DNA of 64,000 nucleotides, from positions 372,001-436,000 of the forward strand of contig RSEE01000024.1 of assembly GCA_003971905.1 (NCBI GenBank). Direction: 5' to 3'. The DNA is from Moniliella sp. 'wahieum'. Its lineage: Eukaryota. Made by a program: the position numbers and the translations under genes. The notes below the pieces were generated by a model. It did not search any database. It was not told the DNA's origin and was given only the letters and a program-made list of their open reading frames with translations. Of the stretch, positions 843-61,361 are shown one piece after another (position 1 is the stretch's first letter; every line of letters begins with the position of its first letter).

Positions 843-1372
843 CGGGGGTGGAGTGGGGTCAGAAGGTGGTAGTGGTTGGTAGTGGGGGCGCGCGCAAGCA
901 CGCGGATACGACCGAGGGCCGGAGTTAAAACGCCGACGGCGGTTCTGTTTTCGGTGGCGAAGGAACCGCCACAACCCTACCGCTCGATACAGTCGCCCCG
1001 TGCTGCTGGGGCGTAGGCCCCTTGCGGCCGCATGAATATTGAATGCTGCCCACGCCACACGCACTGCCCCCGGACAGCCCGCTGGTGCTGCCTGTATAGA
1101 AGCAGCGCTGAATCCTGGGGCGCACGATGGATGACCGATGCCTGATCCTCCCCTCTGCCTGCTCGGCCGAAAGCAGGCCAAGCCAGTGCAGCGGGCAGGC
1201 GCAGCCGGCTGAGGTAAGCACACAGACTACCTCGCCTGACGTAACGCGCAACGTTTCAGTCCATCACATGTCACACGTCACACCGTCCTGTCCTTCAATG
1301 TTCAATCCCGCGACCCCGCTCTTGCTCGTGCCCAGCTGCCTGGCTCCGTTCGCGCCCGTCCCATCCACCCCC

Positions 1373-2183
1373 ATGCCGCCGCCCCGACCGCCCCAGCCAC
1401 CCCCACCCGAGGCACCGCAGGAGCAGGATCCCGACGAGGTGGCCAAGACGCTGCGCAAGGAGCAGACCACCTTTTGGCAGGAGATTGAGATTGACCGCAT
1501 CCTCCGCGCCTTCCGGCTCAACCCGTACGAAGTCATGGAGGTCCCGCTCGAGGCCGAGGCCAAGGACATCCAAAAGATCTATCGCCGAAAGAGCCTGCTC
1601 ATCCACCCCGACAAGGTGCAGCACCGTACGTCCGTCTGTGTCTCTGCTTCCTGCTTCCTGTTGCGCCTCGGCGATCTGGCGCTGATACTGATGCTGATAC
1701 TGATGCTGATGCTGCCCTGATGCTGACGCTGACCCCGACCCAGCACGAGCAGTGGAGGCGTTTGACCTTCTCAAGAAAGCGTCGAGCCAACTTCTGGATG
1801 ATACTTCCCGGAAGAAACTGGACGAGGTGGTGGTGGAGGCGCGGGTTACGTTGCTACGGGAGCTCAACTTGCCCGCCGACACGGCGTCAGACGACGCGCG
1901 GATCCAAGCGATGGGCCGGTCGTTCGAGGAGAAGCTGCGGGCGCACACACGCGAGATCATGGTGGACGAGGAGCTTCGGCGTCGGCGGGCCGTACGGCTG
2001 CAGCATGCGGCCGAGGGCACCGAGTCGAAGAAGCGGGAGGAGGCGATGCGGGAGCGCAAGCGCAAGGCCGAGGATGCCAAGGACTGGGAGGCGACGCGCG
2101 ACGAGCGGGTGGATGGGTGGAGGACGTTTGTCAAGGGCGGCGGCGGGAAGAAGAAGAAAAAGAAGAGCGGCGTGCTGGGCTAG
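1373..2183 (+). CDS. spf31: J-domain protein, DNAJC8/Spf31 family
   Basis: NPYEVM...IYRRKSLLIHPDKV (HPD motif). Intron 1626-1743 joins it to HPRAVEAFDLLKKA. C-terminal WEATRDERVDGWRTF...KKKKK...VLG is typical of DNAJC8. Confidence 0.9.
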
Positions 2184-2385
2184 CACCAGTGCATCCCCCT
2201 GCACACCCGCCTGGCTGTAGCATATACTACCTGGGTTAGTGATCTTGTGTCCTGCGCGGAGAGATAAAGTACAAGCAGCCAGCTTACCTAACGCCCCGCG
2301 CCTATCGTCAGGCGGCGGTCGGGGCCACCTGTCCCATCTCAGATCTCGCAGCCGCACAGACGACGACCGTTTTGGCCAGCGCCGC

Positions 2386-2430
2386 CACCACCTCCACCAC
2401 CACCACCACCACCACCACCACCACCACCAC
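2386..2430 (+). repeat. (CAC)n microsatellite just upstream of the Vps34 ATG
   Basis: Direct reading: ~15 CAC units with one CTC variant. Confidence 0.9.
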
Positions 2431-2454
2431 CCACCCGCCTGTCCCCCCCCCACC

Positions 2455-5900: not shown

Positions 5901-6234
5901 GTTTCTTTTTCCATCTCGATCAATCTTTCGTTCCGCGTGAGGTCAGAGACGATTGCTTTTTCGATCCATATGGTGCACGGCGGATCGTTGTGCGCGGGTG
6001 TGAGTCGTGCCCTACGGTGTGGGTGGTGGTGCAGGGTCGGCGGATGACGCAGCCTCGAAGTTACGCTGTTGAACGTTGAATGTTGAACGTTTGTTCAGGG
6101 AACGAGCTGGAGATTCAAGTTGAATATTGAATCCGGCGGGAGTGGATTAGATTGGAGATCGAGACGGGAGGAAACAGATGGTCGCTGAGGACGACGGCTG
6201 ACACTGCGACTGTGTTTGGTCCACCACTCGCGAG

Positions 6235-9419: not shown

Positions 9420-9780
9420 CTAACAGTTATATAGTGACTGGAATCACTAGCACTATACTAAGTACTAACGAGTGACTATAGTGACTACAACAGTTGTTCC
9501 TTGCTACTGTGACTGGTGACTAGGTTGACTAGCTATATCACATGGACAACAAGTGACGCCAGTGACTTACGACTCGTAAGTTATAGTGACTAGTAACTAG
9601 CTAGTAACTAGTGACCGTCCGAGTAACCTCTCTATCTATAGTCAGATCTATAGTCCCCTACTAGTCACCGCGCTTGGAGCAGCCCGAGGGCCTGGTAGCC
9701 GGTTATCGGTAGCTATATTCATATAATACTGTTAGTCGCGTTAGTCTCGGTTAGTAGTCATTGGTCACTAAGTAGTTTTC
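9420..9780. repeat. Low-complexity patch of degenerate GTGACTAG/GTAACTAG/CTATAG quasi-palindromes
   Basis: Dense recurrences such as tagtgactagtaactagctagtaactagtgac (9584-9615). Confidence 0.7.
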
Positions 9781-10713: not shown

Positions 10714-12177
10714 CTAGTATTGCGACGGGTGGGGGAGGAACGGGATGCCAGAGGGCACGCTGTGCGGGGCACGGGGCAAGCTCAGGTCGGGAGACAAGCC
10801 CGGGAGAGGAGAGCGGGTGGACGATTGGGGCGAAGGCAGCGGCATAGGACCACGGTGCGAGGTGGTGGTGGTAGAAGATTGTTTTCGGGCCGTGGTACTA
10901 GTGGTGGTCGAATGTTTGGAGGTGCGCGTGGAGGCCTTCAAGGAGGACGGTGCAGACTGGTTAGTAGTGCTGTTCTTGCTTGCGTCCGAAAGGTTGTCAG
11001 GTTGGTACGCTAGCCACTTGGTCTTTTGCTTGAGGATCTTGCTCACCGTCGAGCGCTCGACGTTGAACGCGGCCGCGATGTCGGCCTGACGCATCTCGGG
11101 GTTGATCTCGGCGAATTGACAAATCCGTTTGCGTGCTGCCCCGTCGATGCGCGCCTTGGGCCGCTTGGGCGTGATAGGAAGCGCAGGAATCATAGAGGAA
11201 GCCCCCTCGAAAAAGGACGGGGTGGGAAGGCCCTTGCGCACCGCCATCTGCGATCCCATGTAGCGCGGGTCGGACATAAACGGCATGCCCCGTGGGTCGG
11301 CACGCACCACCGACGTACCAGGGTGGTAGAACGAGCGCTGCCCCCCGGTCCGACCATCCAACGAAGAGGGAGTGGGGTCGAGCAGGCCATAGGGCTGCTC
11401 ACCTTGGTGGGTCTCTGTGTTGGCATACAGTGCAGAGTGGGGCATGAACCCGCGCTCTGCCTCGGTACGCATCGACGTCACCGACGACGGGGGCGTAGGG
11501 TAACTCGAATCAAAGTGGTTGTAAGGGTTGGAGTTGGGGTTGGGGTTGGGGTTGGGGTTGGGGTACACAGGTTGTTGCTGCTGCGGCTGCGGCGCCGGAT
11601 GTTGGGGATGCATCGCCGGCTCCTCCATCCCAAGGAAGGATGGCGTGGTGGGCAGGCCATTGTACCCGCGCCCACCTGAGCTTACCGGACTCCAGTCCGC
11701 AGGGGGAAGAGAGTTGCGTGGCATGCTGCTGTCTTCGGGGAAGCGCGCCGACTGCTGATTGGGAAACACTGGTCAGTTGGTTTGTTACTGTGGTGGGTTG
11801 GGCCGATGGGGACAGGAGGCAAGGGGGAGAGACGTACTGGCGTCGGGGGCAGGTCCGACCGGAAGGGCGAGCGGAACGAGGCCGGCACCTTGGGGTTGGG
11901 CAGACCAGTTGGCTGGGCAAAAGAGTCGCGCGAGTCCAGCATGGCAGAGGGCATGTTGCTGGCGTGTTGGACAGGATAGCCGTTGCTTCCATTCAACATC
12001 CCCGAGGGGGTGGTGCGGAGAGAAGGCACGCCGGCGTTCATGCTCTGGGCAGAGGAGGAGTAAGCATCCGAGCTGGTACTGAGTACTGAGCACAGCACAA
12101 GCAAGCGTGAGACAAAGGAGTCAAACAATACTTACCGGAGGAGCGTGCTTGGCAGAGTCGGTCACTGCAAAGGACAT
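10714..12177 (-). CDS. CENP-B N-terminal (psq-like) HTH DNA-binding protein in a low-complexity P/S/Q-rich polypeptide
   Basis: KARIDGAARKRICQFAEINPEMRQADIAAAFNVERSTVSKILKQKTKW (~11014-11160) matches the CENP-B_N HTH pattern. GT-AG introns at ~12079-12135 and ~11769-11837. No DDE domain before the stop. Confidence 0.8.
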
Positions 12178-14049
12178 GGTCACGATGAGGATGGGAGTGT
12201 GGGAGGTGACGCGTATCACAGGAATGGGGAGATTGGTGTGAAGAAGTGGGTTGCTCACGTGCGAGATGTGACGCTGGAGACGAGGAGAGGGGCAGTATGT
12301 GGCGGTGGGAGTGATATAGGATGGAGAGGGAGAGAGGGAGAACGGAAGAGAGAGAGATGGGAGGGTGGAGGGAAGCGATGGGAGAGATGGCCAGCGAAGG
12401 GGGGGGGGCGGTATAAGAGGTGGCCGGGAGGACTGGTGGGAGGCGGGAAAGAGTACGGCGGATGGGGTTGGGTGCACGCGCCGCGGCCATTCGAGCGGCG
12501 CCGACAGGAACCCGCCAAAGCTGTCTGTGTACCTGGGCAGGCCCGTCTAGATTGATATTACGGCGGCTATTACGCTGCTTGCAGCTTCACGTGTACGCAG
12601 CCCGAGGGTCCAAGGGGTCTGCTCGGACAGGGCGCAGGGAGTGCGACGCTGGGCAGATTCAGGGCGGGCGATGGTACCGAACGCAAGCCAGGGCTGCTCA
12701 GGACTCCTTTTCGCGGGACTTGCTCGGTCGCTGAGGAGGGCCACGAACGCATCAGGCATCGGCGACTTTGCATCGCCACGCGTCACGCATCCGGTGTGGT
12801 ATGTATCATCGTACACCACGCGCAACGCATGCGTCATGTATCACGCACCAGCCGACGCCGCACCCACGCGGTCCAGGGCAGGTGTGTGGGACAGGAGGCT
12901 CTGCGTTTGCACCAAGCTGGACTGCCAATGTGGGATGTCGGATGCGTAACGCGCAGCACTTCTAGCTTCACGCGCTTCACGCGTCGTGCGTCACTGCGTC
13001 ACCACAGTCACCAACCACTTGACGTTTGAAGCTAAGCCTTTTCAGAGCCTGAAGCAGCACGCGCGCGCAGCATCCTGGATGCATCGCAGCAGACATCGCA
13101 GCGCGCAGCAGGCAGCCCCCTCTGCCTTACATCCATTCCTCACAGATCCCACTCGTCCTTTCCCCTCTCAGATCTCCCATCTGGAATGTTACACCGTTTC
13201 ACACACGCCCGGTGTGAGACGTTGGCACCACGACCCTTTTTCACGCATCACAGCATCGCCCTGGGTGGGGTGTGGGACGAACAAACAACCTGAGATTCGC
13301 AAACGATATGAAATCCCTGCCTGCGTTCGTACGTTCGTACGGTCGTACCTTGTTCCCGAGGACTGACTAGCTTGACTACTCCAGTCCTCCCAACCGATTT
13401 CCGAATCCGCCGTGTAACAGATTTATCATCCATCTCAGATCTCATCAATCACATCATCGATCTCATCCATGCTCACGCGCTCACGCGTCACGCGCTCACG
13501 GTTACCCTGCTATCACACTCATCATGCGTGATACCCAGCATGATCGATGACATGATGACACCATGACGCTATCATCGATCATCGATCATCCTTGCCGTTC
13601 ATCTCGCACCTCTCTCACTTTTGCCAATGCAAGCCCGGAACCCGATGAAACTAGAAGCCTCGATATACGATAGCCACCCTCGTGTCAGAATTGAGTATGG
13701 TCGTGTGCAAATGGAGTTAGTTACACGGTGGTGAACGTGGTCAACTTCAACTTCAAAAGCGTTTTCCTAAAGCGTTTCGTCCACCTTCAATCAACCTTCA
13801 AACCCCGGTTGACATTGTTCTGGCTTTTACTTCCTCTTCTATCTGGGCTATCTAAAATTCCTTGTAATGCATGTAACCTCGCAACCGCATACGCATCGAC
13901 AACTACAAACAACCATCGATGTGTTCAAAAGTCATATTGAGAAGCACTTGTCTTTGGCCTACAACGCCCACATCGCCCATCGTCCAGCCTCTTGATGCAA
14001 ATAGAGCATCGGGCATCGACTATCGGACCGCACCAACCCATTGGAGGAT

Positions 14050-14108
14050 CATCGGGCCATGGACGTGCGGCCATCGGGCCATGGACATGAAACCATCGGG
14101 CCATCGAT
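14050..14108 (+). repeat. 22-bp-period minisatellite: CATCGGGCCAT(G/C)GA(C/T) plus 7 variable nt, x3
   Basis: Copies start at 14050, 14072 and 14094; a degenerate copy lies at ~14007. Confidence 0.75.
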
Positions 14109-17100
14109 GACAATCGCCCCACGGCGCCTGGTCGGTCTCCTGGGGGCGGCGGGACACTTTGACGTCTCCTGCTACGTCCGCCATTCCACCAGATCACAGA
14201 AGGACACAGTACGTTCAGGTGAGAGCTCAGACTGAGCTGAGTCTGACCACTGAGTTACTTAGGGTATGGAAGAGAGATACTGAGACTTGCAGTAACTAGT
14301 ACCTGGTAATTAGGAAGTACTAACTGGTAACTGGTCACTGGTAACTTGTGTAAAAGGCGAACAGCTAGCAAAAACCTACAATAACTAGCAACTGGTAGTC
14401 ATACAGAGGAGCAAACATCTTGTAACTAGTTAATGAACGATGACTGCAACAGTAAGCACTAAGCGCCGCGCTACACCTTTTCAGCGCACACACACACTTG
14501 TCTCATTCCATCTCAGATCTCACCTCAGGCGCTCAAGGCGCTCAGGCCCCTGGGGCCTCACAGGTATGATATATGATCCCATATCTCATATCTCACCGTT
14601 CACCCTTCAACTCCGTACTCGCCACCCCGTTCTACAGGTCACATCGTCACATGTCACACCCGTACTACGGACGTAGGATGCACACTCTTCCAGAGCGAAT
14701 ACCTACCTGGTCTACTAGGCAACACAAGCTCCACACCACCACCATCGCCATGCGCCATGCGCCACTGCCTCTACACGGGTGGAGCTAATTCCGACATCTC
14801 CAGAGTGCCACTTCGTATATAGAGCGCCCCCTTCCATAGAAAAATATACTGCTCTATCGAGACAAGATACTTTAAATCCGATCTGACCTTCATTGTACCG
14901 TAGGGCTTAGCCTAAGCGGTGAGGCTCACCACTTAATACCAGGTACGGCATGCGTTTTGCTTCGTGCATTACACCTTCTGTTCTGGGGGTGCCGCTGGGC
15001 TCCGAGCTCTCTCGACCAAAGCCTCTCACTAAGATTCTGCCGGCAGCTTCCTACAGTAGAGTAACAGCATCGCGTGTAGAACCCTTCCTATAACACAGAC
15101 GCCTTGGCAAGGACACGCTGGATGCGTTTGGTCCCATATAGAGAGAGACAACTGTACTAACCGGGAAGTTATTATAGTGACGAAGTAGTGATTATAGGGA
15201 CCACCATAATGCCTTTTACCGCTTGTTTATAAACAAGTAAACAAATTTCGTGTTCGTGGATCGATGTCTCCCGGGATCCAAGACGGACCCTTGTGGGATC
15301 CTCCTTTCTTTTGCACTACAGTAATTAAAACCAACCACAAGTTGGGATAATGCCTGTCAATGTGATATTCGTACGGTTGCGCGAGTTACGAACTATTTGC
15401 TACTTGATAGTAAGTTGCCAAATCTGGAGGCGAGCGCGCAATGGCTCTATGAGATCTGAGATAGTAGCAACGGCAATGGTTAATGATTAATATTTAATGG
15501 TGGCCGGTGGCCTCCCCGCCTCCGAGCGACGTCCGAGATATATAGTCACTATAGTCACTCTAGTCACTAGGCAACGTGTTCACCTTAGTCGTCGCAGTAG
15601 TCGGTTTTGTCACGGAATATACAGTAGTCACATGTCACAAGCTACAGTAGTGCGTGACCTGTGACATGGGAGCGCATGTCCATGTCATATGCTCTCAGGT
15701 GCCATGCATCGCGTCTGAACGTCTGAGGTCTGGGTTCTGAGTTCTGAGTTCTGAGTGTTCTGAGTGTACTGAGTGTTTGAATATCGTGAGGGTTATATAT
15801 GAGCACGGTCACACCGAGGCCTTCGTCCCCCCACATGAGCATGGCTCTTGAACGTCTTGAACGCGTTGAACGTTGAAGCTTGAAGCTTTTATTGAAGCGC
15901 GCCTTGAAGAGTATTGCAGCTTGAAGCTCTCGTTGAACCGTGACCGTGTTGAACCCAATAGGGCGAAAAATGCCTCCGTCATAACGTCACATCTCGCATC
16001 CAAGAGCATGGGCCAGACTATTCTTTTCTTGATAGCCAGACCTCCATATGGAAGCTAGCTAAGCGCTAATCGTTAATCGGGCTACGGAGGCTTTCAACCA
16101 TCCTCATTTCCAATTCGGGACCGTCTCCGACAGTCGGAACAGAAGAGAAATAAAGGCTCGATTCATTTCTATATGCGATTCTAGCCCAGTGTGTTAATAG
16201 ATTCGGAGGTGGGGAACTGTCATAGTAGTTTGGCTGATCTCGCTCCCATTTCCAATTTCTTCGTCTCGAGCGTCTCGCCCCTTCCCTGTTTTCTTCCACT
16301 TCGCACCATGTCCTCTGTTCTTGCTTCTTCCCCACGAACGATTGCTACACCCTTGGCCTAGTCCGATTCTGGTCTCCCTCGCCTTAGCCCCGACTGTGAC
16401 AGGAACATGGACGAGGAAACCGAGAGAAACCCCCCAAGCTGGGCTATACCAGAGAGATGTGCCAGGATGTGCCCTGCGAATTGTATCCTATAAACCACTG
16501 TAAGTGATAGTGGCACAGACCAAAAGTGGGTCGAGTCTGATGTATACCGATGTCGATGATTCATATCGGTCTCGATATCGATATGAATCCGATGGGTCCC
16601 GGTCTTCGATCACCGGTCACCCTTGAGTACTTGAGTAGAGTGCGGGGAAAAAGAGTATGTACCCGTGGAAAGCACAAGAGAAGATCAGGAACGAATCAGA
16701 TATCATCGATCGAGATCATCATCATCCCATATGTTTTTTTATTGATGTGCTACCGGCTACCCGCCTCAGGCCTTTTAGGATCTCCACACAGGGAAGGCAT
16801 GCCGAGAGGTGTAAAATCAATGACTTTTGTAGTATCGCTAGTACGATGTCGATGAGGCCAAGCGACGAACAGAGCGAACAAGCACGAAGTCCCATGTATC
16901 AAGTAGAGATAATCGAACAACTGTGGAATAACCACGGAACGAACAGCGTTGGTAGGATAAGGTCGTCGGTATATCCAGTGAATGCATCGGTATCTTTTGA
17001 AGGCCAACAAAGAGCACAGCCAGTTGATGGTGTATTACATTGCACATGAAGAGCTACAAAGAGGCTAGAGAACCTTTCTTCTGCCATCCAGGAAGGAATA

Positions 17101-19299
17101 TTGTAAGGGATATAATGCACCAATATTGTGGCTACCAGGCTTTTGGGCTACCCGTGCCACTACCCCACAGTGTGATGACACCACACAGTACCTCTCAAAC
17201 CGTGGTATTCAGGTCGCTGGGGTTGTTACACCTCGCGCAGGCTCACAACGTGAAAACCAGTATAGTGGAGGAGGTACAGTTCAACGTTCAACGTTTTTCA
17301 CATGTCACATGTTACACGTTACGCGTTACGCGTTAAATCGGAATCGAACAACGTGGCGCTTGTGAAGCTTCCTTGAAGCTTCAAAAATTTCCAGCTGCCT
17401 CGACATAAGAGGGATTACTCCGTAATCTTGCCACTGTGCTTCACGCTTTCGCCGGCCTCTGGTCTCTGATTTCAACAAATCAGGATCTCTGTTCGTCTCG
17501 TGGGTGCGGGGGCTGTCGTCCCCACCTAATGTGAGGGCTGTGGGTCTCGGGCCTCAGGCTCCAAGGATTCAGCCTGGTGCATCGGCCTCTACATGGCCGA
17601 CGCCCAAGAAAAGATCGGTGGCGAAAAGGTAACTTCTCTGGTACACTTTTTTGGATCCATAGCGGCCTTTTCGGGGACGGCTCGAACCACGGCCCAACCC
17701 ACCACTGCAGAGGTTAAAATTGGCAATGTGATAGGAAACCTTCGTTTTCACTCCGATTCCATATTCCTGAGAGACAAGAAAAAACAGAACTAGGTCTGGC
17801 TTGCAGGCGTCTCGGCCTGTGTAGGTGTCTGATCGATGGTCATCGATTTCATCGGTCATCGATCAGCCATCGATATCGATGCTCGATCGCTGAGCATCGA
17901 TCATCGATCTCATCAACGATCGATCGGCACGCTGCCTATGCCGTTGGATGAACATCGGTCGTTGGCAGGGAAATTTACTGGCGAGCGGAAATCCGAGAAC
18001 CGGGAGTCGGTAGCAGTCCATCCGGCCACACGTCAAAGTGTCATGCATGTCATCGATCATCATCATCAACGTTCAGTGTTGAAGTTCAACATAAGCATCC
18101 ATCCTTGATGGCCGTGGGAATCCAGTGGAGATAATGTTAGTACTGTTACGTACGGGGCCATACGGTATTAGTAACTAGTACGGAAACTTAACGTTGGTAA
18201 CTATAACTAACACACGTAACGCGAAAATACGACATCAGACCCTATTCCCCCGGTCCCGAGAGGATTTGACCCGTTGAGAGGCCTGGGCCCTGGAGCCTGA
18301 GGCTTAGCCTGGCTCGACGACGCCCAGCATCTGGACGGCCTGGACTGACGCTTGAACGATGATCGAGAACCACGCAACACCCAGTCAGTCACACTCCGTT
18401 GACCAGGGTGGCGCCTTGAAGTTGAAGCTTGATGGCTGGCCCTGCTTGGCCCCTGCTCGGGCTTAGCGCCCAGTCGCTCACCGGCACGGTTACGAGCTAC
18501 ATGTTCCCGGTTCTCGGCTACCGGTACCGTTGTGCGTTATACACGTTAACCTTTACCAGTTACCAAACCTCAGGGAGCTCAGGCCTTAAAACACTTTTCG
18601 CTTCAACCCATCCATCATCCCCCCACCGCGCCACCTGATCCAATATCCACCACTGTGGACCGTCGACAGACCACAGTATTCTCGGTTTCGCGTCCTGGGT
18701 CTATACTGTTCATTGCTCTCAACAGCGCTGCTTCCGCGGTCAACTCTTGAGCTCTCAGCTCATGCATACGCACGTGCACCTCGACGAGCCGCGCACATAC
18801 AGAATGCATGCAGGTTCTTGAGATATGTTTGATGAAGCTCAGGCTCCCGTATGACAGTCGGAAGCGTCGCACCAGGAGACACGTAGGGACTAGGAGGGAC
18901 CTGTTTTGCAAACCATTGGATCGGTGCCGGGGTGAGGCCGGTCAGGTGTATGACATACATGAGGATAGGGGCAGAGGGCAGCAGAGCGGATGACAGCGCA
19001 ATGAAATATATACACTGCTATTACGGGGATCGCTGTTCGCTGATCGCTTGTGTCGGGCGCATCATGAGTATAAGTATGAGTGCTTGTGGATACCGAGTTC
19101 CTCAGCCCCATAGCCTGAGACTGAGCTCATGGGTACCACCCCATTCTACACCCTGCCCAACTGTGGATACTTTGCCAATAAGTTGATCCTATTGTATCAG
19201 TTCAAAACGTACGTCGACTGTGGGAGTACAGCTTACCGCAGAGAGATCGATGATCGATGATCGATGATGGAGGATATATGTGGCTTCTCGGTGAGTAGC

Positions 19300-19934
19300 T
19301 GCTCCTCTATACTCCGCTCCATCCCCGACACCCACGTCCACAACGAACCTATGGTGGAGGAAGAGGATGGGACGAGGCGCGGACGGAAGGCACAGCGCAC
19401 CGATTACCGCGTGATGGGGCCCGGAGCACTGGGAGGAACCGGAATGGAGGTAGACCACACGCTGCGCGACACGGGATCGCAGGAGGCGCAGAGCGCGTAC
19501 CGGCGGGTGGTGCATGAGAGCACTGCGTCGCCTTTGGAACGCCGGGAGAAGGAACTGCTTCGGCTGCTTGAACAAGCAGAATGCGACAAGAACGCCAAGT
19601 ACCAGGGACGCACTCAAGAACCGTTTTTCCCCCTGGTTTTGACGACGCGAGGATACTACGGCACCAAGACGGCGGGCAAGTTGTTTGCGCATTGGAAGGA
19701 GTTGGCTACTAAGTCTCAGTGGAAATGGTTCCTCGCTCGTATGTCAACCACGTTCCTCCCGTGTCCACACGCGCTTCCTAGGGTACGGGACCGGATGGCG
19801 TGAGCCGGAGGGTCCTGATATCCTGGCGATCCCCCTGGTCCCTTAATCTTGGTGGCGCTTCCAAGTAACCCCCGCAAGATGAACGGTTCGGTTTAGACGT
19901 AGCGTTCCCCCTGTCCCAGCCTTAAGCTCTGTCA
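19300..19934 (+). mobile_element. 5'-truncated non-LTR retrotransposon, CRE/Cnl1/MoTeR-like: restriction-like endonuclease C-terminus plus 3' UTR
   Basis: ORF 19264-19803 reads HVHNEP...RTD...VD...DKNAKY...FFPLVLTTRG...HW, the EP/RxD/D/KxxKY/FxPxV pattern of RLE domains at the end of CRE-clade ORFs. The downstream tail recurs at 47419-47509. Confidence 0.7.
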
Positions 19935-22900
19935 ATGGAATGCACATAACAGGGAAGCACTGAAGTTCTGAGGCCCCTCAGTCTGAGGCTTTAAGGCCCA
20001 GAGGCCTGAGGCCTGATGGGTGATGGCCTGCGGTTGGGGTTTCCCTCTCCAAGCTCTACTAGCTAATAGTTTCTACAGAGAGGATACTGGATTACTGCTT
20101 GCGAATTACTGTGGATGTAAATTGGGGATTCAGATTTGAGACGGTGCATAATAGGGCATCATGTGCATCCCATGCATCTCATGGGACCCCCCTGCATTTC
20201 GCTGGGGAAACGAGCATCTGTCGGTTGCTTGTATGTTACCCCCTCTCTGTTTGGCCCTGGAAACAGGTAATGTGGTAACGTGTAATAAGTAATCTGTCGG
20301 TTAAGTGTAAGTTATCTAATTCCGATAATACTGCCTCATGCGCCGAACGTAATATACCCATCCACAGAGAGAGCATTATGCGTACCGGCTCGATCAACCT
20401 CATCGACCTGATCGATGACCGATCAAAATGGCACCCTCGCTAGGATCTGAGAGGATTGTAAGATCTCAGTTCTCTCAGTGGCCTGCCCCAACGATCTGTA
20501 CAACCGAGTAATGTCATCGATCCATGACAGTCTCGATGCACGCTGGCAAAAAAGAGCGCTTGTCTTGCGGAGAGCGGAGGAAGTGTCTGAGACGGGGGAG
20601 CGTATGTCCGTGTGAAACAAACGCGAGCAGGTGTGGCGCAGGTACGCCCAGCCCAGCCTCGGCACAGCCTCACAGTGCTGCCGGTGTGACGCATGACGCA
20701 TGACGTGTGAAGGAGGGTCTGACATGTGACATGTGACATGTGATACCTGCGACGCGTGACCCATATCCATGCAATGCATGACGCATCATCCATCAGCGCT
20801 CAGCGCTCATTTGATTGTCCGATTTTGGTTCCTCATCGACTCATCTGCCTCTGAACCTCAGGCTAAGTGGTCAGGCTGATCCCTCACCGGCTCACCTCGG
20901 CCTCAAGCTTTGTCACAACCATCACACGTCAAGTTTCGAGGCTCAGCCGCTCAACCAACACAGCAAGCGTAATCCAATGCAACAGAATCTTGCTCTCTCC
21001 TCATAAAGCCGCAGTGCCAATCTTGCGCCACCAAGTACCGCCCGGAATGCGCTTTCTCTGAGGAAAAAAGAAAACATCCTGCACTAAACATCTTGCGCTG
21101 TACAGTGTACTTACAGTAACTATGGAGTAACTGGCAATCAGACACATGCATGACACCTTGCAGCATTATAACGAAGAGGTATACCTTCTTCATGATGAAT
21201 TTCTACTGTGGATAGAAAAGAAGTATCCAAGAAAAGTATCCAACGTGTCTCTATATTTGCAGCAAGGAGTACTAAGGGGCATTACGGTGGCTGCAGTGGG
21301 AGTTGAGTAGAGCGACGGTGTTGCAGTGTGAAGTAGGAAAATGCAATTCCCACTCAGAAGACAGAGAAACTCTTCCGTCCCCCCCCCTACCACAGGGAAA
21401 CCGGAAACCGGGAACGTGTTGCCGGTTCTTAGTAGCCAATGCTCAATGTCCAGTAATGTATCGTTCCGTCCCGTTTATAGGGTTCCTTAATCGGGAGTGG
21501 TGGTGGGGGTTAGTGAGGACCTGTTGGCCGTCCTGAGAGGCATGAAAACCCTGAAGCTCGCTACCCAAGTCCCTATATGCAGCCCTACGGCCTACAGCAT
21601 CCTAAGCTCAACTAATACGGTGGTCAGCAACGGGATAACAATGGCATGTGGCAACAGTATTCACTGCGTGGATCATCATGCAAGGTTACCGGTTACCTTT
21701 GTTACATGGATCTTATATCAATTTCCCCTCTGCTGCATGCATTAAAGACAAGTATTGTGGTGTAGCACCGTGGCTCAGTTTTTTGCCTTCATGTATACTG
21801 GGTCTCCCGTCAAAGTGTGCAAAGATACTGTCAAAAAAGGGTGAATAGTCAAGGGTACACTAGCATCACAGGGCGAAACACCTCTGGGCGTAGAAGACAA
21901 GACCCCCTCTCGCTAATACGATATGCTACGGTAACTTACTACTTCTCATAGTCGGATGATACGGAGCTCAGATCTTAAACCTTGCCCACAACCTTCCGCT
22001 GTTTCCTCCAAATTATGAGAGCTGCTCCCAGCTATAAAAAGTAGAAGGGTATCCCAGAAATATTATACAGGATGCCATTAACGCTGTTCTATTGGATATT
22101 CCACCACGTTTTATTCCCCCTCAAACTTTGGTCGCTGAGAACATAATACCCAGTGACACTAATATGAGGTGACGCGGATGACGGTATATGGGCCTTGACA
22201 TCGATTAGAAGAAAGAAGTACCCCCCTAGCCTACCATCTGCATGTGGTGGCTGTGTGGCAAAGAAGATGTAATGGGGGTTATTTGTGTGACTTTGCATTA
22301 TACCGTTTTTTGGACGGTTTGTGAAGACCAGATGAGGTTAGAGGCTCTCTTGCGTGAGAGCCAAAAAAGATACTCATCGTGACTCTTTTCTCTTCACGGC
22401 CTCCACACATCTCACTCTTGTAGCCCTTTCAATAGAATGCATGCCCTTTTTCTTTCTTGTTGGTGTCCTATTTACTCAGTGCTTCCTCCTTTTGTTAGGG
22501 ACAACGCATTTTAGAACACCACATAATCATGATACTATTAGTTGTACATGTCTTGCCTTTGTATGCTATACCGTCATCCATAATCCTGGAGGGGCTTTGG
22601 GTCATCGTCACCATTTTGATCCGTCGCATTTACCTGGTTCATATGATGTCGTATTAGTATATGTGCAGAGTGTAGCGCACCGGCTTCAGATTTTCGTTGG
22701 ACCAAAGATGATCCTCATGGGGAACAAACCTGGAAAGAGTGTGGACTAAGAGGGAGCTGACCTAAGAAAGTATTCTGTCCATCACGGGGGCATTTCATCA
22801 TGTATACTAAGTACGAGGATAATAAATGGTCTTTTTTTTCTTACAGTCCCTTGAACAGTGTGGAGGGAGATGCGAGCCATGGAATACACCATCTTTCATT

Positions 22901-24195
22901 CCAGTACCTGCAAACGTTTTGTGGGAAGTGGAGTATGGACGAGTCAGAAATCCAATATCGACCCATTCCATGCCGATTATAAGGCAAGCAGAGCGAGATG
23001 TAGCATGCAAATGCTCCTGCAACTCCTTTTCTTCCCAAGTAGATGGCTCAAGAGGGGGTTCGAAAAAAGAAGTAGACAGAGCTCCAATCGGCGCCAACTA
23101 GCAGACTCTACTCATCGATCGACGCGGGGCTGGTGTCTTACGACGAACGAAGGAGCTCAGTAGAAGAACTAACGGTTGCCAATGTTGGGGAGGGACTCCT
23201 GGATCTGATTATGAGAGAACAATGATTAAATCGAATGTTAGTCTGATGTAGTTTCAGTATTTCCGTTCATATGAAAGCCCATCATCTTATAGAATACACA
23301 GCACACGTCTTTTTGGGAAGATACAGTGTCTCAAAGTTGGCGTATTGTTGGCTGATGATTATATAGGTTGCATACACCCCGTTACATAGAGAAGCATTGC
23401 CTGGATATCACCCAGAGGACCAATGGACCCAGAAGGCAGCCTTTGAACGTATACTTCATCCTTGACATATATGCCATAAAAGGCAGAGAGAAAGAGCGTA
23501 TATAGAAGGTGTCACAGTCGGGGCTAAGGCGAGGGAGACCAGAGCCGAGACTATAGGTCAAGGGATGTAGCATTCGTTTGTGGGGAAGAAGCAAGAACAG
23601 AGGACATGGTGCGAAGTGGAACAAACAGGGAAAGGGCGAGACGCTCGGGACGAAGAAATTGGAAATGGGAGCGAAATTAGCCAAACGATTATATGTGAGA
23701 TTGTGGGTCTGTCCGGAAGAACTAGTTGTCTATAAGTGTGCAGGTTTGGCGTCTATTTTGATATACGGTCTCTCTGTCGTGTCCTTCATACTCATGAACA
23801 CTCGCTATAGGGAAAATCCGGACGGTCATTGCTTCTCCTTTCACCTCAGCACTCATAGCCTCAAATCGCTGTTCGAAGACAGCGGCATTCATATCTTCTG
23901 CCTTTGGCTGCTACACCGCTCTTGCTTAGGTATAGTGCTTCTCGACCTGAGATGACGGAGTGAGAGGCGCAATGTAGAGACGATCAGCCCTAGTTGTTAT
24001 TTTTGTTTGAGGCCCTATGTGGCGGACTCTTTTTCTCTACCAACTCATATGGCGCATGATACTCCCCTCTTCGGATTGGGATAGAGGCTTTCAGAGCTTT
24101 GGAGATTCACCGTCCTACAAAATAAAATGGGAGGAAGCGGTGAGTGGGTGATTGCTGGGTGGATGGATGTTGCAAGAGCGAACGAGAGGACCAAG

Positions 24196-24278: not shown

Positions 24279-24694
24279 CTTTTTTGGCGGGCGGAACACG
24301 CTGGGCGGAATGGTGCCGGTGTGCCCCGCTGGGGTGTGACGCGTGACGCGTGAGGCTACAAAAAACAAAGCGGTGCCGAGTTGCGATTGAAATATTGAAA
24401 CGCGCGTTCCCGTTGGACAGCCAGCCTTGGTTCCACGTGGCACCCCGGGGGTGTGGCGCAACCCGTCGTTTTCGGCCTATTTGCCCGCTCTAAAATTCCA
24501 CACAAGAGTCCCCATTGATGCGCGGCCCCTCCACCTCCTCCTGCCCTTCGTCTGTGCCGCCATACCGGGGGTTACGTCCACGCCCCCGTTCACGTCTCTC
24601 CTCACGCCCTCGTCCACGTCCACATCCACCATTCACCCCACTTCGCTTCCCGTCTCCCCATCTGCACACCATGCACCGCCCACTCGACGGTGCG

Positions 24695-38029: not shown

Positions 38030-38165
38030 TGACTAGTGACTAGTGACTAGTGACTAGTGAAGAGACTAGTGGCAAGTGATGTCACGTGACATGTGACATG
38101 TGACATGCATGTGACAAAGGGTTATATGATCGAAGGAGGAATGATCGATGATCGATGATCGATGA
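38030..38165. repeat. Cluster of three palindromic heptamer arrays: (TGACTAG)4, (TGACATG)3, (TGATCGA)3
   Basis: Arrays at 38030-38060, 38087-38107 and 38142-38165. Confidence 0.95.
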
Positions 38166-41100
38166 TCCCCCCAACCCCGGTGGGCAATTAAGCAGCCTAC
38201 CACGCGCCAATGAAACCTGGCCCTTCCATCCCCTCTCAGAATCTCCGATCTCAAGCTCAAGCTGCAAGTCGGTCGAGGCACTAGGCACTAGTCACTTCCC
38301 TCCCAACCCAGTGCCCACTACCAGGTCCCTCACACCTCACACCCCACCTAGGCCCACCCACGCGCCCCTTTTGCTCATCGGCCTCCCGCACCCACACACC
38401 ACTGTTCATCATTGTCGCTGCTGCGTCAAGAGCTTTCAGTTAGTATATACACTTGGTGAACGCCCTGACTGAGGGACGTCGTGGCCTTCCTCAGCCCTGA
38501 GCGTGAGCCTCAGGCCTCATCAGTCTATGCCACTCGCAATCCAGTATGCACACGCCCGCACGAGAGCCGAGTTTCTTCGCCCCAGCAGGTCGAAGAGAGG
38601 TATAGTGCATAGACGGTAGCCTCCTATCCGCGCACCCACAAGAGGGGAGGGGGTACAGAGGTGCAGAGAAGGTCTGAGGCTCAGATCTGATGGTCGATGA
38701 TCGATGAAGCTTGAAGCTTGAAGCTTATCGGCTCCCGCCCCCCTGCCCAACACCCATGCACCAATGCAACAGGAGCCCAGGTGCTCTTCCAGTTCTTATG
38801 GGAGAGTGTATATATGTTGAACGTTGACATGTTGACACTTGAGCATGGCAAGCACGCACGATACAGCTGTGGTGCGTGAAATAACCGTAGTTTCTTGGTG
38901 AGTACGAAGTCAACAGTCTCTACTCAAAGCTAAGGGGCAGGGGATGGAGAGCGGAGGATGCACCCAACAGCCATCGACGATTGCATGATGCTTGAAGCTT
39001 TTGATGCCTGACGCGCTTGACGGTACGAACGGGCTCCCGGGCCCCTTTAAGCTTTATTCCTCTCGTTTGTTTTCCTCGATTGTTTTTCTCTTTCCCTGGC
39101 ATTAGTTACTAATGGTTAGTATAGCCACAATAGTCACTATAGGTACTAGTAACTATTCGTTACTCCCGCTGCTGCGCCCTACGGCCGCACGTATCCCAGT
39201 CCCCGCCTTCGGCCGGCTAAGGTGCGGAGTGTAGGATGCGCCCGATGCCCCACGTCGGCCAGCGCCCGAGACGGAGACGGGGGTCCGGTCAAGCCGGTCA
39301 AAAGCTTGAAAAAAAACTTTGGAAGGGCTTCCAAGTCAATACAGTGTGAGTGTGGTCAATAACCGTGCTTGGGCATGCTAGTATCTGAGGCGCATGAGAT
39401 CATGAGACCCTTCGACATCGTCCGCACGTCTCAGATGCTCATCAGGCCTGGTTATCCTGGATGTGCTCTCTCGGGCGTAGCGGGGCATAACTTGTAACAG
39501 AAGGCATGGCCCAGTGATGGTGCAGACGATGTATCGATGCTGGGTTGAGATGTGTATTGAGACAGAGTCGAGGGCCATCGACCATCCCAATACGATGCAT
39601 GAACCTCTTTGTCCAGATATAAAAACTGGAGCAGATGGAATAAGGCCTGAGGGCCGGGGGAGCGCGGGTTCCTGCACATCTTGGTTCCCCAATACAAGTA
39701 TCCTATAGAGAAGAGAAGATCCAACAGGTTGGGACTTTCCTCAGTGCATCAGCGCTTAGAGCCACTCACGGGGACGCATAATCGCCGCAGTGTGGGTATG
39801 TCATCAGCGCACTGAACGCATCTCATTAATCATTTGGTATTGCTGCGATCCCTACGGTGTGCAACATAAATGTGGCATGTGAGAGCAAATATGGAGTAGT
39901 AAACATTAGTAAATAGGGGACAAAACACTGATGCACGCTCCGCTCTTTTCCCTCCCTATGTTGTCCCATGGAGCATTCGACAGTGAAGTAGTACACACGT
40001 TGAAAAGGATTATTATAGACGAGAGATCGGAAATCCCTGAAGAGAGACGCACCATAGTCACCATTTTTGTGCATAAACAAACGGAAACACGTATACCACT
40101 GTGAGTCACTAGTGAGATGAACCACCACAGTCGCCACAGACTGCCTCTATGGACACGCTCTTGCTGCCGCCGCGCTGCCCATGACATCTTCCCCAGCAGC
40201 CCTGTTATATTTTTATGAAGGCCTATCAGAGTAAGCTGCATGACGTCGACGAACCGGTGGCTTCAGCGCGCTGTCGGGGCGAAAGAAGAGGAGCTAAATG
40301 CCGGGTACTGCGGGCTGGGCGGTTGGAGCTAAGTAGTACTTAGTACTATTGACGCTATTGACCACATTATTTAGCTGGTGCAGCATCAGATCGATCTAGC
40401 GATCGCGGCATGATCCATGAGGCATGAGGCCTGAGGCTGAGGCGTTTTCACTCGGCAGGGACATCAGGCGGGGTGGTGTGGATATATATATGTTGATTGT
40501 TGTTGGTCATTTGTCGAGTTTGGAGCGTGGGCTAGCTTGGCCCGTCTCGACTACGAGGTACGCCTCTCTGCTCGCTGTTACATGTTAGTATGGACTACGG
40601 CGCCTTCCTCTCACCAGGCGCATGCTCAACGAAGGGGCAATCAGAGAGGGGCGTAGCTTAGAAGGATGCAAGGTGTTTCGACTTCACTTCCTCTATGCTA
40701 GGTCACATCCCCAACCTAGGCAAGGCTGCCCCGATGCCGAGTGAGTTGGCGGGCGGCTGGGTTCGAGATGGCCAGAGAGGAACAGAGGATACTCAGTAAG
40801 CAGTAGGAGTTGGGGCGGACGCGTGGAACTGTACGTGTACTATCGTGCGCGGAGTTGCGAGATGAAGCTTGAAGCTTGAAGCGAGAGATTAGTAGCTCCG
40901 CGGTCACATCGGAACGGTGTTAGGTGTTGACAAGGCGATCGATCGCTGCTTGAGGCAAGACGGGGGCTGAGAGGCTGGAATGGGGGCTGGCCGGGGCGGA
41001 GTGAGGATCGGGACGAGCCTGCCGTGTGTGATGCCTTGTCCCTGGCGGCAGGACCCCGGGTGTGGGCTACGGGGGAACACACAGGGTGCTGCCGCAGCCA

Positions 41101-46965: not shown

Positions 46966-47418
46966 GAGGAGTAGTGGTGGAGGAGAGGAAGAGGCGATGA
47001 GGAAGGAGATGTACAGGACATCTGGGTGCCAGGAAAAGCGGGTGCTCCTGTAGCCGCATGTGCATCATGAGCCGGTCCACACAACATCCAGCTCTCGTCT
47101 ACTACAGAAAAGGCAAGCACCGAGGCGGCGCAGTGACGCGTGACGATGTTGGATGTAGTGGCTTGCCCAGTGGGGCGTGGCACTGGCATGGTGCGTGGCG
47201 GGTGACATGTGACATGCGACACCCCACGGGGGCAGTGTGAGAGTCATGCATATCACATTCCCATCACATGTCACATGTCACATGTCATACCATCCGTTAC
47301 TAGTGCCCTTGCGGACTTGCGTACGCCCCAAGTGGTAGGCGACCCGGTGCGAGAGGGGGACCAGCGGCTAAAGACCGACTATAGCCAAGCAGCAGCCGCT
47401 AGTAGTGTTTTTAAACGG

Positions 47419-58000: not shown

Positions 58001-58093
58001 TTTGCGCCGGCGACGAAGGACAAGGCGTCGGAGCTGGTGATCAAGGACCCCAAGCTGCCGCTCACGGCCGACTGGGAGCTGCGGCTGGCGTAG
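55066..58093 (+). CDS. ROT2: ER glucosidase II alpha subunit (GH31)
   Basis: Signal peptide, FKKCDQSSFCRRLR, GYHQCRWNY, DVMWLDIEY, catalytic WNDMSEP, WTGDN, FFRAHAHIDTKRREP. Intron 56443-56533. Confidence 0.96.
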
Positions 58094-59663
58094 TGGTCTG
58101 TGCGCAGCACAGACTGAATCGCATTGCGTCGTTTCGGATAGCAGCGGGGACTCAGGACGAGTGGTGGCAGCCGACGCGTAGGTGGTGCGTTTCAACATAG
58201 CACGTGTGACATGTGGCCTGCGGCCTGGAATTGTCGATTGGGAAGCGCCAGCGGCGCACGGGCCACCGCGCCGCCCTACTCCGACCGGCTCGGGGCCGCC
58301 GCAGCCACGCCGGGCCAGGCACAGACGCAGTGTCGGTGCGGCCCAGCCGAGCCGGATGCGGCAGGCACTGTGCCAGTGCTGCGCTCTGGCGGATTGATGG
58401 GGCACGGCAGAGAGAGCTAGTGCGCTCGGTTGGCCTCGCGCTGCGTACGTTGCGGCCACTCAACGCACTCCACGTGGAGGCCCCACACGCACGTACCACA
58501 GGGGGCGCGGGGTAATCCACATGTGGCGGCTGCCCCACCCCGCCACCCCCCGCTTTCCCAGGCACCCCACCTGAATGATTGATGATTCCTTCCCGTCGGA
58601 CTCGTCTTGGGGCTCCATTCCACTCTCTGCCTGTCACATGTCCCACCGCCCATGCCACACGTCTCCTCTTCGGCGCTTCTTCGGCCGCCGGCCCCAACGC
58701 TGCGATGGTGCGCCGGTGTGGGTGCGCCGGTTGCCGTGCCTTGCCGCGTCCCCGCGCACGGCAGACACCGGCTACACGAGAGGGGCGTGGAGTGCGTGCC
58801 CGCTTCCAAGTGGGACACTCGTAGTCGGCCTCTTCGGCCGCCTGCCTCTGCCCACTGCCCCCTCCCCCTGTCTTGGTCTCAAATATGCTCACAAAATAAG
58901 CTGGGGCGGGTAATCATCGATCGTCGATCGTCGACCATCCGGTACCCGGCCCAAGCGCCAGAATGATGCCGGTGTACTGGCAGCGTAGCTTTTGGGATGC
59001 GAGAGTGGGTTGGTGGGGGGGCATGTGCAATGTCTGCCTGTCTGCCTCCTGCCTGCCCGCCAGTACCGGCAGTGCGGCAGTGCGCTCGACCAGCGCATCA
59101 TCGACATCATCTCCGCTTCGGCTGCGCACAGGAGCGCATCCGCTCTGCCAAGTGCCAGTGCAGCTGCTGGCCCATCCATCCTTAGGCCTTACTAGCCTTA
59201 CTCTTCATCTCCGCATCGCTCCCACGCGCACGCCAATAGCACGTCCGCATTGGCCAGCCGAGCGACGCAGGAGGACGCAGGCCAAGCCCAGCCTTGCTCT
59301 CCTATCCCGACTGGCTCTCCTCGCCGCACTCGCACATCGCCCCGCTTTGTCCTGCCTGCGTTTCACCCTTCACCCTGCCTTCCCCTTAGGCCTTAGGGTT
59401 CTTCGTCATTCATTAATCGTCCCGGCTCAGCAACCGCTACGGTGCGCCCCCACTCCGCCACCAAAAGCTTCCCCAGCGCAGTCGCTACCCACTAGTCACT
59501 AGTCACCTGGCCAGTCACCTGACATGTCACATGACATCATCCACCCCACGTGCTGCCCCCCCCCCCCCCGGCTATTTAAACCCCCGCGTGGGCCCAGTGT
59601 AGCACCTAGAAGCCTTTCCTCCCTCCCGTCCCCCATCCCCCATCCCACATCCCACATCCCACC

Positions 59664-60325
59664 ATGTCTGCTGTTGCCACCGCTCCCGCCCTGCACCTGT
59701 CCAACGGCGACGGGGACAAGGCCAAGGCTGCCTACGCGCCCACCCACCCCGGTGTGTTCCAAGTCGAGTTCCAGCCGGGCGCATACAACTCGTCCCTCGT
59801 CGCCCAACGCGACTTTGCCCCCGGCGAAACGATTGCGACCTTGGCCCATGCCCAGCCTACTTCGACCGTGCGCTACTCCTCGGTCCAGGTGAGCGAAACG
59901 AAGCACATTGAGTTGCACAGCGAGTACGTTCGTTTTCTTTTCTTTTCTTTTAGGGTTAGGTCTTTCCTTTCCTTTCCTCCCTTTAGACCGTGGCGTGCTG
60001 ACACGCTCCTCGTACCCCCACCTCCAGTTTGTTGTACTGCAACCACTCGTGTGTGCCCAACGTGCACTTTGATGTATCGTCGCCGAGCCAGGCCGAGTGG
60101 AAGGTGGTTGCGCTGCAGCCGATTCAGCACGGCGATGCACTCAGCTTCTTTTACCCTTCGACCGAGTGGGAGATGGACCAACCATTTGCCTGCCAGTGCG
60201 GCCATCCTACCTGCCTAGGCACCATTCGTGGCGCCAAGTTCATCCCAACCAACGTCCTCCTCGGAGGCCGCTTCGCCATCAACGATCATATCCGCCGTTT
60301 GAAGCAGGCGCAGGACCAGGCCTGA
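59664..60325 (+). CDS. Small SET/post-SET domain protein
   Basis: Intron 59924-60027 joins ELHSD to LLYCNHSCVPNV (NHSC motif), GDALSFFYPSTEW and post-SET FACQCGHPTC. Confidence 0.88.
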
Positions 60326-61361
60326 CGCGCTGGTCCTGACGCCCCCTCCAGCTGAAGCGATACATCCCAAGCCAACTTCGTTCATGGGATCGAATCGAAT
60401 CGAATCGGATCGGATCATATCGCCCCGGATCCCATCGGATCTGTTTCTTCCTCCAATTGCACCATACCATTGCACCTTCTTGCGTCTCTATAGCATTCTT
60501 GCCCCCTTCTCCTAACTAACTCACTCCGCCCGTTCACGCGTTAACGTTTAACGTTTAACACGTTTAACCCCCTTGCTCCCTTGGAACTCTACCCTTGCCT
60601 TGCTACCCACTACCGGGCGTCGAGTCTGTCGACCCCTCTTGAGGACGCGGGTGCGACGGCACAGCCGACGACCTTCCAGTCCGGGTCCACAGCCGCTCGT
60701 TCCCCCACTCTAACCCACTCACTTATCGCGCGCTACCCAATCTACCACTCGCCTCGGCTCTGGGTCCCAGCGCCCACCGCACGAGCGCACAAGCCAGCCG
60801 ATATCCAGACTCAACCGAGAAAAAAAAAAGTTTCGTAGAACCCCCCATCCATCGCCCACGCGCGGTCCAACGTGCCGAGCTGGCGCGGCAGAAAAACGGG
60901 GCAGGGATCAGGGAGAAGGAGCAAGGAGCAAGGAATGGGGAGTAGGGAGTAGGGAGTAGGGAGCAAGGAGCAAGGAACCAGCGCCCGTCGGGCGCTCACT
61001 ACGAACAAGGCAGAACTGGAACGGCAGGGTTGGGCAAGTGCGGGGGAAAGGCAGGGTACCAGGGCAAGGCTGGTGCCGTGGTGAAAGTGAAAGCGTACCA
61101 GCCACGCGGCCCAGAAAGACACGATGCATGATGAGATCTGGGAGGATAAGAGGGTGGGTGCACGAGGGGACGGAAGGAAAAAGTCGAGTGGGTAGCAGAG
61201 GTACGTCAATATCGTACACTGAGATCGCTCACTGATCGCTGATCGGCGTGCGGTGGGAACCGCCACTGCTCCCCCCCCGTTCCCGCTTTCGATCTGAATC
61301 TGAAGACCTTGGACCCTCGACCTTGGACCATCAACCCTGGACCGTCCTTGCCCATGCAACC

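Follow-up and report, generated by a model that had tools for sequence, protein, structure and literature searches.

Excision footprints of transposons that form DNA hairpins are textbook knowledge, and nucleases of the Artemis type open such hairpins 2 nt from the tip. In the relevant passages of the published work, hairpins on flanking DNA are attributed to hAT, Transib and MULE elements and to RAG, and their opening to host enzymes such as Artemis (PMC5499845) or Pso2, with the distance of the nick from the tip setting the length of the resulting palindrome (PMC5499845, PMC5873905). For Ac/Ds in Candida, yeast and plants, the sections concerned describe footprints that are either short deletions or insertions of flank-derived palindromic (P) nucleotides, with a few types predominating (PMC5873905, PMC4561436). 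Here we describe a family of short repeats with a period of 7 bp in a 64-kb stretch of nuclear fungal DNA with a G+C content of 58% (Moniliella sp. 'wahieum', contig RSEE01000024.1, positions 372,001 to 436,000; "the window" hereafter means the whole of this stretch). The repeats alternate T-N-A anchors, in which N is any base, with self-complementary tetranucleotide cores, and we lean towards the view that these modules are footprints left on excision by a DNA transposon of the cut-and-paste kind, or by a nuclease working in the same way.

The repeat grammar was found at every site named in a preliminary description of the window: all 27 carry a T-N-A, the 4-bp palindrome given for them and a second T-N-A, with three positions displaced by 1–6 nt (1263, 47263 and 59490 should read 1264, 47264 and 59496, respectively) and one site, at 32135, having complementary anchors (TGA..TCA). 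Many of these sites hold just 1.4–2 copies of the unit, for which the term array is generous, and the longest reaches 4.7 copies (38028–38060). Expected numbers were taken from 40 simulations of the window under a third-order Markov model. T.A anchors enclosing a palindromic core were observed 82 times versus 1.8 expected (standard deviation 1.1), and the same class of core within each of the 15 other anchor types 0–15 times versus 1.4–7.4 expected. Identical T.A anchors set 7 bp apart around a non-palindromic core were also in excess (79 observed, 22.1 expected). Hexamer palindromes of the form A....T occurred 315 times where 200 were expected, and those with the other three outer pairs were not enriched over the simulations. 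The middle base of the anchor is free and follows background composition, at a TSA:TWA ratio of 39:10 for the modules versus 1659:666 for the window. Fifteen of the 16 possible tetramer palindromes are in use, fairly evenly, and single modules with ATAT (five), TATA (two) and TTAA (one; none with AATT) correct the earlier description, in which no all-AT core had been found. The reported change of orientation in mid-array is present at 17374 (TGA AGCT TCA).

Period 7 stands out in the spectrum of exact tandem arrays. Arrays of at least two copies numbered 96, 88, 68, 13 and 15 for periods 5, 6, 7, 8 and 9, respectively, and arrays of at least three copies 10, 16 and 0 for periods 6, 7 and 8, which places period 7 far above the decay from period 6 to period 8. 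The unit is one base plus a 6-bp palindrome in 30 of the 68 period-7 arrays, and 29 of these 30 palindromes are of the form A....T, a class to which by our own arithmetic only 64 of some 2340 heptamer necklaces (2.7%) belong. The unit is non-palindromic in the remaining 38 arrays.

The fine structure was determined for the 62 modules in which the two anchors are identical and the core is palindromic, by scoring on each side the point at which the exact period-7 match ends. Read on the proper strand, a module has the form H-P-H, in which H is a 5-nt direct repeat, T-N-A-w-x, and the two letters of P, x'w', are the reverse complement of the wx that ends H; the spacer is written as the complement of the preceding wx, as P nucleotides templated by a flank would be. 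Beyond the anchors, half of the core recurs on the left only in 22 modules, on the right only in 27, on both sides in four and on neither in nine (Fisher p = 6.4e-6). The two letters beyond an anchor equal the near half-core in ~60% of cases and the next two at about the chance level, and the joint table of periodic extensions is L-shaped, with eight modules at (2,0), nine at (0,2) and none at (1,1). The usual exact run is 12 nt with a fixed phase, and since this is shorter than the 14 nt of two units the founding event was not a 7-nt tandem duplication. In the comparison with simulated sequence, left and right types numbered 23 each (0.15 and 0.10 expected, respectively), modules with a half-core on both sides three (0.00 expected) and on neither side 13 (1.57 expected). 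The direct repeat TNAwx is present in 46–49 of the 62 modules and fits a 7-bp duplication in which the first two letters have been replaced; only four tandem duplications of the plain 14-nt kind, with a core that is not palindromic, occur at T.A. Counted as 12-mers, H-P-H occurs 97 times with T.A anchors (0.25 expected) and 0–12 times with each of the 15 other anchor types, and a first anchor with an initial letter other than T was found 16 times versus 97 with T, so both T and A are required. Perfect H-P-H modules have a density of ~0.7 per kb of window and ~1.4 per kb in its gene-poor parts, and their shape is different from that of a microsatellite born by slippage.

Several derived structures accompany the simple modules. 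Two tetramer palindromes in succession between T.A anchors occur three times (0.15 expected), with both flanks as predicted in two of the three (9594 and 38101). Modules at T.A with a mutated core and an intact half-core were counted 16 + 6 times versus 1.45 + 1.32 expected, and look like decayed footprints. Arrays may also abut, sharing one anchor while each core matches its own outer flank, as at 38694–38726 (TCGA and AGCT) and 15858–15888 (ACGT and AGCT). Two simpler geometries were at chance: TNATNA (41 observed, 38 expected) and the plain product TNAwxTNAwx (one observed, 1.43 expected). Two duplication models were set aside. Tandem duplication (7 nt) of an odd palindrome would place half-cores on both sides, which only 3–4 of the 62 modules have. 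For a 5-bp duplication with added P nucleotides, the plain product is the TNAwxTNAwx just mentioned and the target would be asymmetric, and by sequence alone this model is inseparable from one with a 7-bp duplication.

The position of the half-core also bears on an explanation by transposon ends, in which a 3-bp T-N-A duplication of the PIF/Harbinger type would surround two letters left from either terminal inverted repeat. The PIF/Harbinger target is indeed described as T-N-A with any base in the middle in the pertinent part of PMC4561436, and cores of the type CT..AG occur at three filler lengths (CTAG, CTATAG and CTAGCTAG). This explanation does not predict a half-core outside the anchors, yet 49 of the 62 modules have one, and on a single side; it would call for at least a dozen families, each with termini of its own, for a set of tetramers so evenly used; and the excision of mPing is described as precise (PMC4561436). 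We therefore regard it as very improbable.

P nucleotides, which come from a hairpin opened off-centre, are recognised by a palindromic tetramer with a first half that copies the adjacent flank, and a target-site duplication by direct repetition of the T-N-A region. From the structure and its statistics we propose the simplest scheme that would give both with a symmetric enzyme; its insertion, hairpins, opening distance, mode of joining and agent are all inferred. An element would insert at a T-N-A-centred site, ab-TNA-wx, duplicating 7 bp. On excision both flanks would be sealed into perfect hairpins, and a host nuclease would open each of them 2 nt from the tip to give self-complementary 4-nt 3' overhangs, w-x-x'-w' at one end and b'-a'-a-b at the other, on duplex ends that both begin at T-N-A. 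If both strands were ligated untrimmed the two tetramers would face each other, and replication or mismatch repair would then yield TNA-wxx'w'-TNA-wx in one daughter and ab-TNA-b'a'ab-TNA in the other. Opening 3 nt from the tip would yield an identical product because T and A are complementary, and opening at 4–5 nt would produce complementary anchors (TGA..TCA), a minority class that includes the flipped module (eight ten-mers, 1.5 expected). Retention of both overhangs would leave two tetramer palindromes between T.A anchors, each matching its own flank, and if the outer anchor of a footprint were hit again, abutting arrays with different cores and one common anchor would arise. A footprint would, moreover, double the T-N-A targets and itself constitute a perfect 12-nt period-7 run, which repeat visits or ordinary replication slippage could then extend into the arrays of 2–4.7 units. 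The scheme would thereby give the 7-bp period, the T-N-A anchors that agree in their middle base, a free palindromic core, and a half-core on exactly one side with equal numbers of left and right types (23:23).

Some of the processes proposed in the preliminary description can be separated on these data. Its hairpin step and staggered cut at T-N-A are compatible with them. The data do not support hairpin-primed writing of symmetric DNA as a general process, as a hand count from the listed palindromes gave about a dozen non-tandem T-N-A-centred odd palindromes versus ~10.6 expected. Odd palindromes with 6-nt arms were in excess overall (47 observed, 12.5 expected; 44 and 6.5, respectively, for those centred on TGA or TCA), and nearly all of them are the tandem modules themselves. 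Short-range template switching predicts complementary anchors, which only eight of the 101 ten-mers have, versus 82 with identical anchors. The argument that no single transcription-factor site is involved was borne out by the free core sequence. The exclusion of a single transposable element (TE) family was right as regards TE copies, for the repeat search of the window recovered no long repeat family carrying the arrays, just low-complexity families and the arrays themselves; as regards TE scars it does not stand, given the one-sided H-P-H structure. A single TE consensus was rejected: the copies have no shared flanks, and the sites at 13435 and 14513, despite similar left flanks, show no homology beyond the array itself. 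True paralogous sites were not found in the window.

A number of observations weigh against excision footprints as the origin of the modules. We know of no characterised family in which a duplication of 7 bp goes together with a T-N-A centre and with perfect hairpins on the flanks. No transposase domain was found in the 84 open reading frames (ORFs) scanned, apart from a weak CENP-B_N match, and a search for intact elements, requiring a 7-bp T.A-centred duplication and at least 11 of 14 matching termini, found terminal inverted repeats flanked by none of 1149 pairs of identical nnTNAnn heptamers lying 40–9000 nt apart (control pairs, 0 of 47,056). The density is very high for fixed footprints and implies very many fixed events. 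Thirteen of the 62 modules have no half-core, including four of the 14 multi-core arrays; decay by one base covers some of these, and the array at 20793 is not rescued by any single substitution. Period-9 relatives occur four times (0.30 expected), with the one-sided rule kept in three, and would need a 9-bp duplication or another opening distance. Among 49 inferred empty sites a purine precedes the T in 35, solely on the side that did not donate the palindromic nucleotides; no bias is seen at the mirror position, and a fully symmetric model does not predict such a one-sided preference. Finally, the cores are even 4-bp palindromes, wxx'w', whereas hAT chemistry, as described in the relevant part of PMC5873905, gives palindromes centred on the complement of the element-adjacent base.

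The same chemistry might operate without a mobile element, as a mutational process of the host's own that generates H-P-H, if a genome-encoded nuclease, such as a domesticated transposase, cut at T-N-A with a stagger of 7 nt (or 5 nt), the ends were filled in, and one end gained two turned-around or hairpin-derived nucleotides before end joining. All of the structural evidence would fit this equally well, the lack of an element or transposase in the window fits it slightly better, and the one-sided purine bias could reflect an asymmetric cutter. On the other hand, a single hairpin-making break would leave T-N-A unduplicated, so that a separate staggered cut and fill-in would be needed; the plain fill-in products TNATNA and TNAwxTNAwx are, as shown above, not enriched; and the process would be costly for the host. 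To our knowledge no enzyme has this element-free staggered-cut chemistry at T-N-A, and we consider the explanation unlikely. As to the agent behind footprints of either kind, T.A sites outside the Pfam-supported ORFs number 1788, against ~62 modules, and we suggest tentatively, as a possibility that we do not favour strongly, that the lineage harbours an uncharacterised hairpin-forming agent that has marked about one in 20 of its non-coding T-N-A sites, either a transposon of a new kind that duplicates 7 bp centred on T-N-A, or a nuclease encoded by the host and derived from a transposase.

Ordinary replication slippage could also account for arrays, if heptamers made of a 6-bp palindrome and one base expanded preferentially because their slipped strands fold into small hairpins that escape repair. 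Period-7 arrays are over-represented in general, including the 38 with a non-palindromic unit, and the arrays of 3–4.7 copies probably need either slippage or repeated events. The (TGACATG)3TGA array is moreover present in at least 120 metagenome contigs of widely differing GC (0.26–0.69), an abundance that is uninformative in itself as no control heptamer was compared. Most modules, by contrast, are 12-nt runs of fewer than two copies with a fixed phase, and the absence of (1,1) extensions, versus eight and nine for the one-sided classes, is not what slippage would leave. Hairpin stability gives no preference for T..A over G..C beside the spacer, yet 29 of the 30 palindromes are A....T, and the period-5 counterpart, one base plus a tetramer palindrome, is not enriched (22 of 96 arrays).

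Control DNA from other organisms points the same way. In 512,578 nt of metagenome contigs, chosen for carrying (TGACATG)3TGA, the two flanks of the (TGACATG)n arrays are independent of each other, with a half-core on both sides in 35 cases, on the left only in 24, on the right only in 32 and on neither in 23. Modules with other GC-containing cores (n = 32) were one-sided in eight cases and lacked a half-core in 23, near chance, and non-CATG cores occurred at 0.14 per kb versus 1.06 per kb in the window. Because the flanks in the control contigs are independent and their modules near chance, the one-sided rule is particular to this genome and not a property of heptamer arrays generally, and we give little credence to slippage as the founding process. 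Some of the metagenome (TGACATG)3TGA sites adjoin telomere repeats of the TTTAGGG type (contigs L077 and L029), and in another contig (L069) the array lies beside further heptamer arrays containing GTGAC.

The modules avoid recognisable coding sequence. Just one of the 62 lies inside the 20,929 nt of Pfam-supported ORFs; 28 fall in the 12–24 kb stretch and ten between 36 and 40 kb (Table 1). Four arrays, at 24337, 34813, 40863 and 47264, are situated shortly upstream of ORFs with TGA on the sense strand, and three copies place TGA in all three frames, as might be expected of functional DNA, for example sites for a dimeric regulator or three-frame stop cassettes in leaders. The free core rules out a single binding protein, however, the one-sided flank rule has no functional reading, and 28 of the 62 modules lie in a 12-kb stretch empty of Pfam matches. 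An artefact of assembly or amplification, for its part, would not be expected to yield 46 sites obeying a flank-templated rule in a consensus assembly. We find function and artefact alike barely credible as the origin of the modules.

Table 1. Positions of repeat modules and arrays in the window, with the side on which the half-core recurs
Feature or sequence	Position	Type	Remarks
Gene-poor stretch	12001..24000	G+C 0.48-0.53, 28/62 modules	no Pfam match in scanned ORFs of at least 100 aa
TCACA-TG-TCACA	1264..1275	half-core right only	single module
GTTGA-AC-GTTGA	6068..6079	half-core left only	single module
CTAG TAA CTAG/CTAG TAA CTAG	9590..9611		two tetramers between anchors, each predicted by its own flank (both overhangs would have been kept)
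GTAC TGA GTAC TGA	12076..12090	left	
(TCA TCGA)x2 TCA TC	13572..13590	right	
TGA ACGCGT TGA ACGT TGA AGCT TGA AGCT	15858..15888		composite: period-9 unit, then two anchor-sharing cores
TCACC-GG-TCACC	16610..16621	right	
TCA ACGT x2, TCA CATG x2, TTA CACG, TTA CGCG x2	17281..17335		in-phase module run
TGA AGCT TCA	17374..17383		complementary anchors (flip)
TCGA (TGA TCGA)x2 TGA	19247..19267	left	
GA GGCC TGA GGCC TGA	20001..20016	left	
(TGA CATG)x3 TGA	20720..20743	half-core on neither side	each flank one mismatch off
(TCA GCGC)x2 TCA	20793..20809	half-core on neither side	unexplained
(TGA CGCG)x2 TGA	24337..24353		between tRNA gene and lectin-like gene
TAAGC-GC-TAAGC	29233..29244	right	
(TGA TGCA)x3 TGA TG	34813..34839	right	~360 nt upstream of mitochondrial-carrier ORF
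AG (TGA CTAG)x4 TGA	38028..38060	left	longest array
(TGA CATG)x2 TGA CATG/CATG TGA	38087..38114		double-tetramer junction at end
(TGA TCGA)x3 TGA TC	38142..38167	right	
TCGA TGA TCGA TGA AGCT TGA AGCT TGA AGCT	38694..38726	left (TCGA), right (AGCT)	two arrays, one common TGA
(TGA AGCT)x2 TGA AG	40863..40882	right	~50 nt before ORF starting at 40931
TGACG-CG-TGACG	47134..47145	right	
TGA CATG TGA CATG	47203..47216		
(TCA CATG)x3 TCA	47264..47287		gap between SUR7-family ORF and CPSF_A-domain ORF
CTAG TCA CTAG TCA	59492..59506	left	
(TTA ACGT)x2 TTA AC	60541..60559	right	

A Pfam scan of the ORFs identified SUR7/PalI, tubulin, B56, PI3-kinase, GH31, Sir2 and DnaJ domains in the window, and the SUR7, tubulin, GH31 and B56 matches support its fungal origin. 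In a protein search the GH31 exon was 54–58% identical to proteins of Tilletiaria, Parajaminaea, Sympodiomycopsis, Ustilago, Malassezia and other Ustilaginomycotina, with no match above this range, and the SUR7-family ORF had a single relative at 38% identity. The fungus resembles Ustilaginomycotina but is distinct from Ustilago, its GH31 protein being just 54% identical to those of Ustilago and Sporisorium, and heptameric repeats in Ustilago maydis, mentioned in the preliminary description, found no support in full-text literature searches. Immediately after the array at 38087, positions 38108–38115 read ACAAAGGG, which may resemble the Ustilago pheromone response element.

Other features of the window were noted alongside the modules. 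The ORF with the CENP-B_N match (10717–11772, minus strand, 352 aa) carries it as an N-terminal helix-turn-helix (E = 1e-4) and may descend from a transposase of the pogo type; the Pfam scan detected no DDE domain in it. Two tRNA genes were identified by Rfam on the plus strand, at 5811–5900 and 24196–24278, and the second is followed, after 59 nt, by the (TGACGCG)2 array at 24337. A perfect (CCGTTTC)x13.3 array at 7000–7092, which is outside the T-N-A/palindrome type, is situated between plus-strand ORF pieces at 6606–7469 and 7109–7825; both pieces match the SIR2 domain, and the array is probably intronic. An inverted duplication of ~180 nt (16222–16400 and 23515–23692, ~90% identical), with an ATG followed by a Ser/Leu-rich start, may represent two small paralogous genes facing in opposite directions in the Pfam-empty 12–24 kb stretch, and contains no informative 7-nt indel. 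A second pair of inverted arms, 41 kb apart at 451–699 and 41661–41917 and 80–88% complementary, probably consists of paralogous coding pieces, with a weak Zn2Cys6 match adjoining the arm at 41661–41917.

Full-text literature searches returned nothing on a T-N-A-centred 7-bp form with 2+2 nt, on fixation at ~1 per kb, or on chaining into heptamer arrays, and a search for the array sequences as words in full text matched only cloning oligonucleotides. If a hairpin-forming agent is indeed at work, it would be a dominant source of small insertions in this lineage and the main generator of its heptanucleotide microsatellites, giving this class of microsatellite a mechanism of birth in which a footprint comes first and slippage follows. 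The scars would then report target preference (T-N-A), integration stagger (7 bp) and the opening and joining of hairpins (2 nt, untrimmed), parameters that normally require bench assays. A genome with few recognisable transposons would still keep a dense record of cut-and-paste activity in its promoters and in regions with few genes, places in which regulation can be changed by an insertion of 7 bp, and the repeats may record heavy past transposon traffic.

The modules can be set beside five described systems. Mutations by template switching at quasi-palindromes create or perfect short inverted repeats, according to the passages concerned (PMC3820800, PMC8604942). Such switching perfects inverted repeats that already exist and would make the anchors complementary, whereas the anchors here are direct repeats, which agree in their middle base in 82 of the 101 ten-mers. 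The heptanucleotide repeats of Xanthomonas, Nostoc, Geobacter and other bacteria, in the part of PMC4692102 that describes them, likewise form non-coding period-7 arrays with a locus-specific unit. They are prokaryotic, form long arrays that are often inverted pairs, and have neither T-N-A anchor nor palindromic core nor one-sided rule, unlike the arrays of the window, which lie in fungal DNA and reach at most 4.7 copies. PIF/Harbinger elements, represented by mPing, share the T-N-A target triplet with any middle base, but the same section of PMC4561436 gives them a 3-bp duplication and precise excision, and the corresponding TNATNA scar is not enriched here. Among DNA transposons of Basidiomycota, the 7-bp target duplications described to date, of the length proposed for the window, are those of hAT7 and Kyakuja (PMC12730594); the portion of that source bearing on their distribution reports them from Pucciniomycotina and Agaricomycotina rather than Ustilaginomycotina and gives neither a target consensus nor footprints, and no such transposase is encoded in the window. 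The closest resemblance in form is to the footprints of hairpin-type systems (hAT elements such as Ac/Ds, Transib, MULE, and V(D)J coding joints). There too, in the sections of PMC5873905, PMC4561436 and PMC5499845 that treat them, both copies of the target duplication remain, the palindromic nucleotides between the copies are templated by the flanks and not derived from the element, and a few types predominate. The modules differ from these in their 7-bp T-N-A-centred duplication, in the absence of a visible element from the window, in their fixation at ~1 per kb and chaining into arrays, and in their even palindromes of almost always 2+2 nt; the Ac/Ds palindromes, as the relevant part of PMC5873905 describes them, are odd and centred on the complement of the element-adjacent base, and the even palindromes of the window fit perfect hairpins better.

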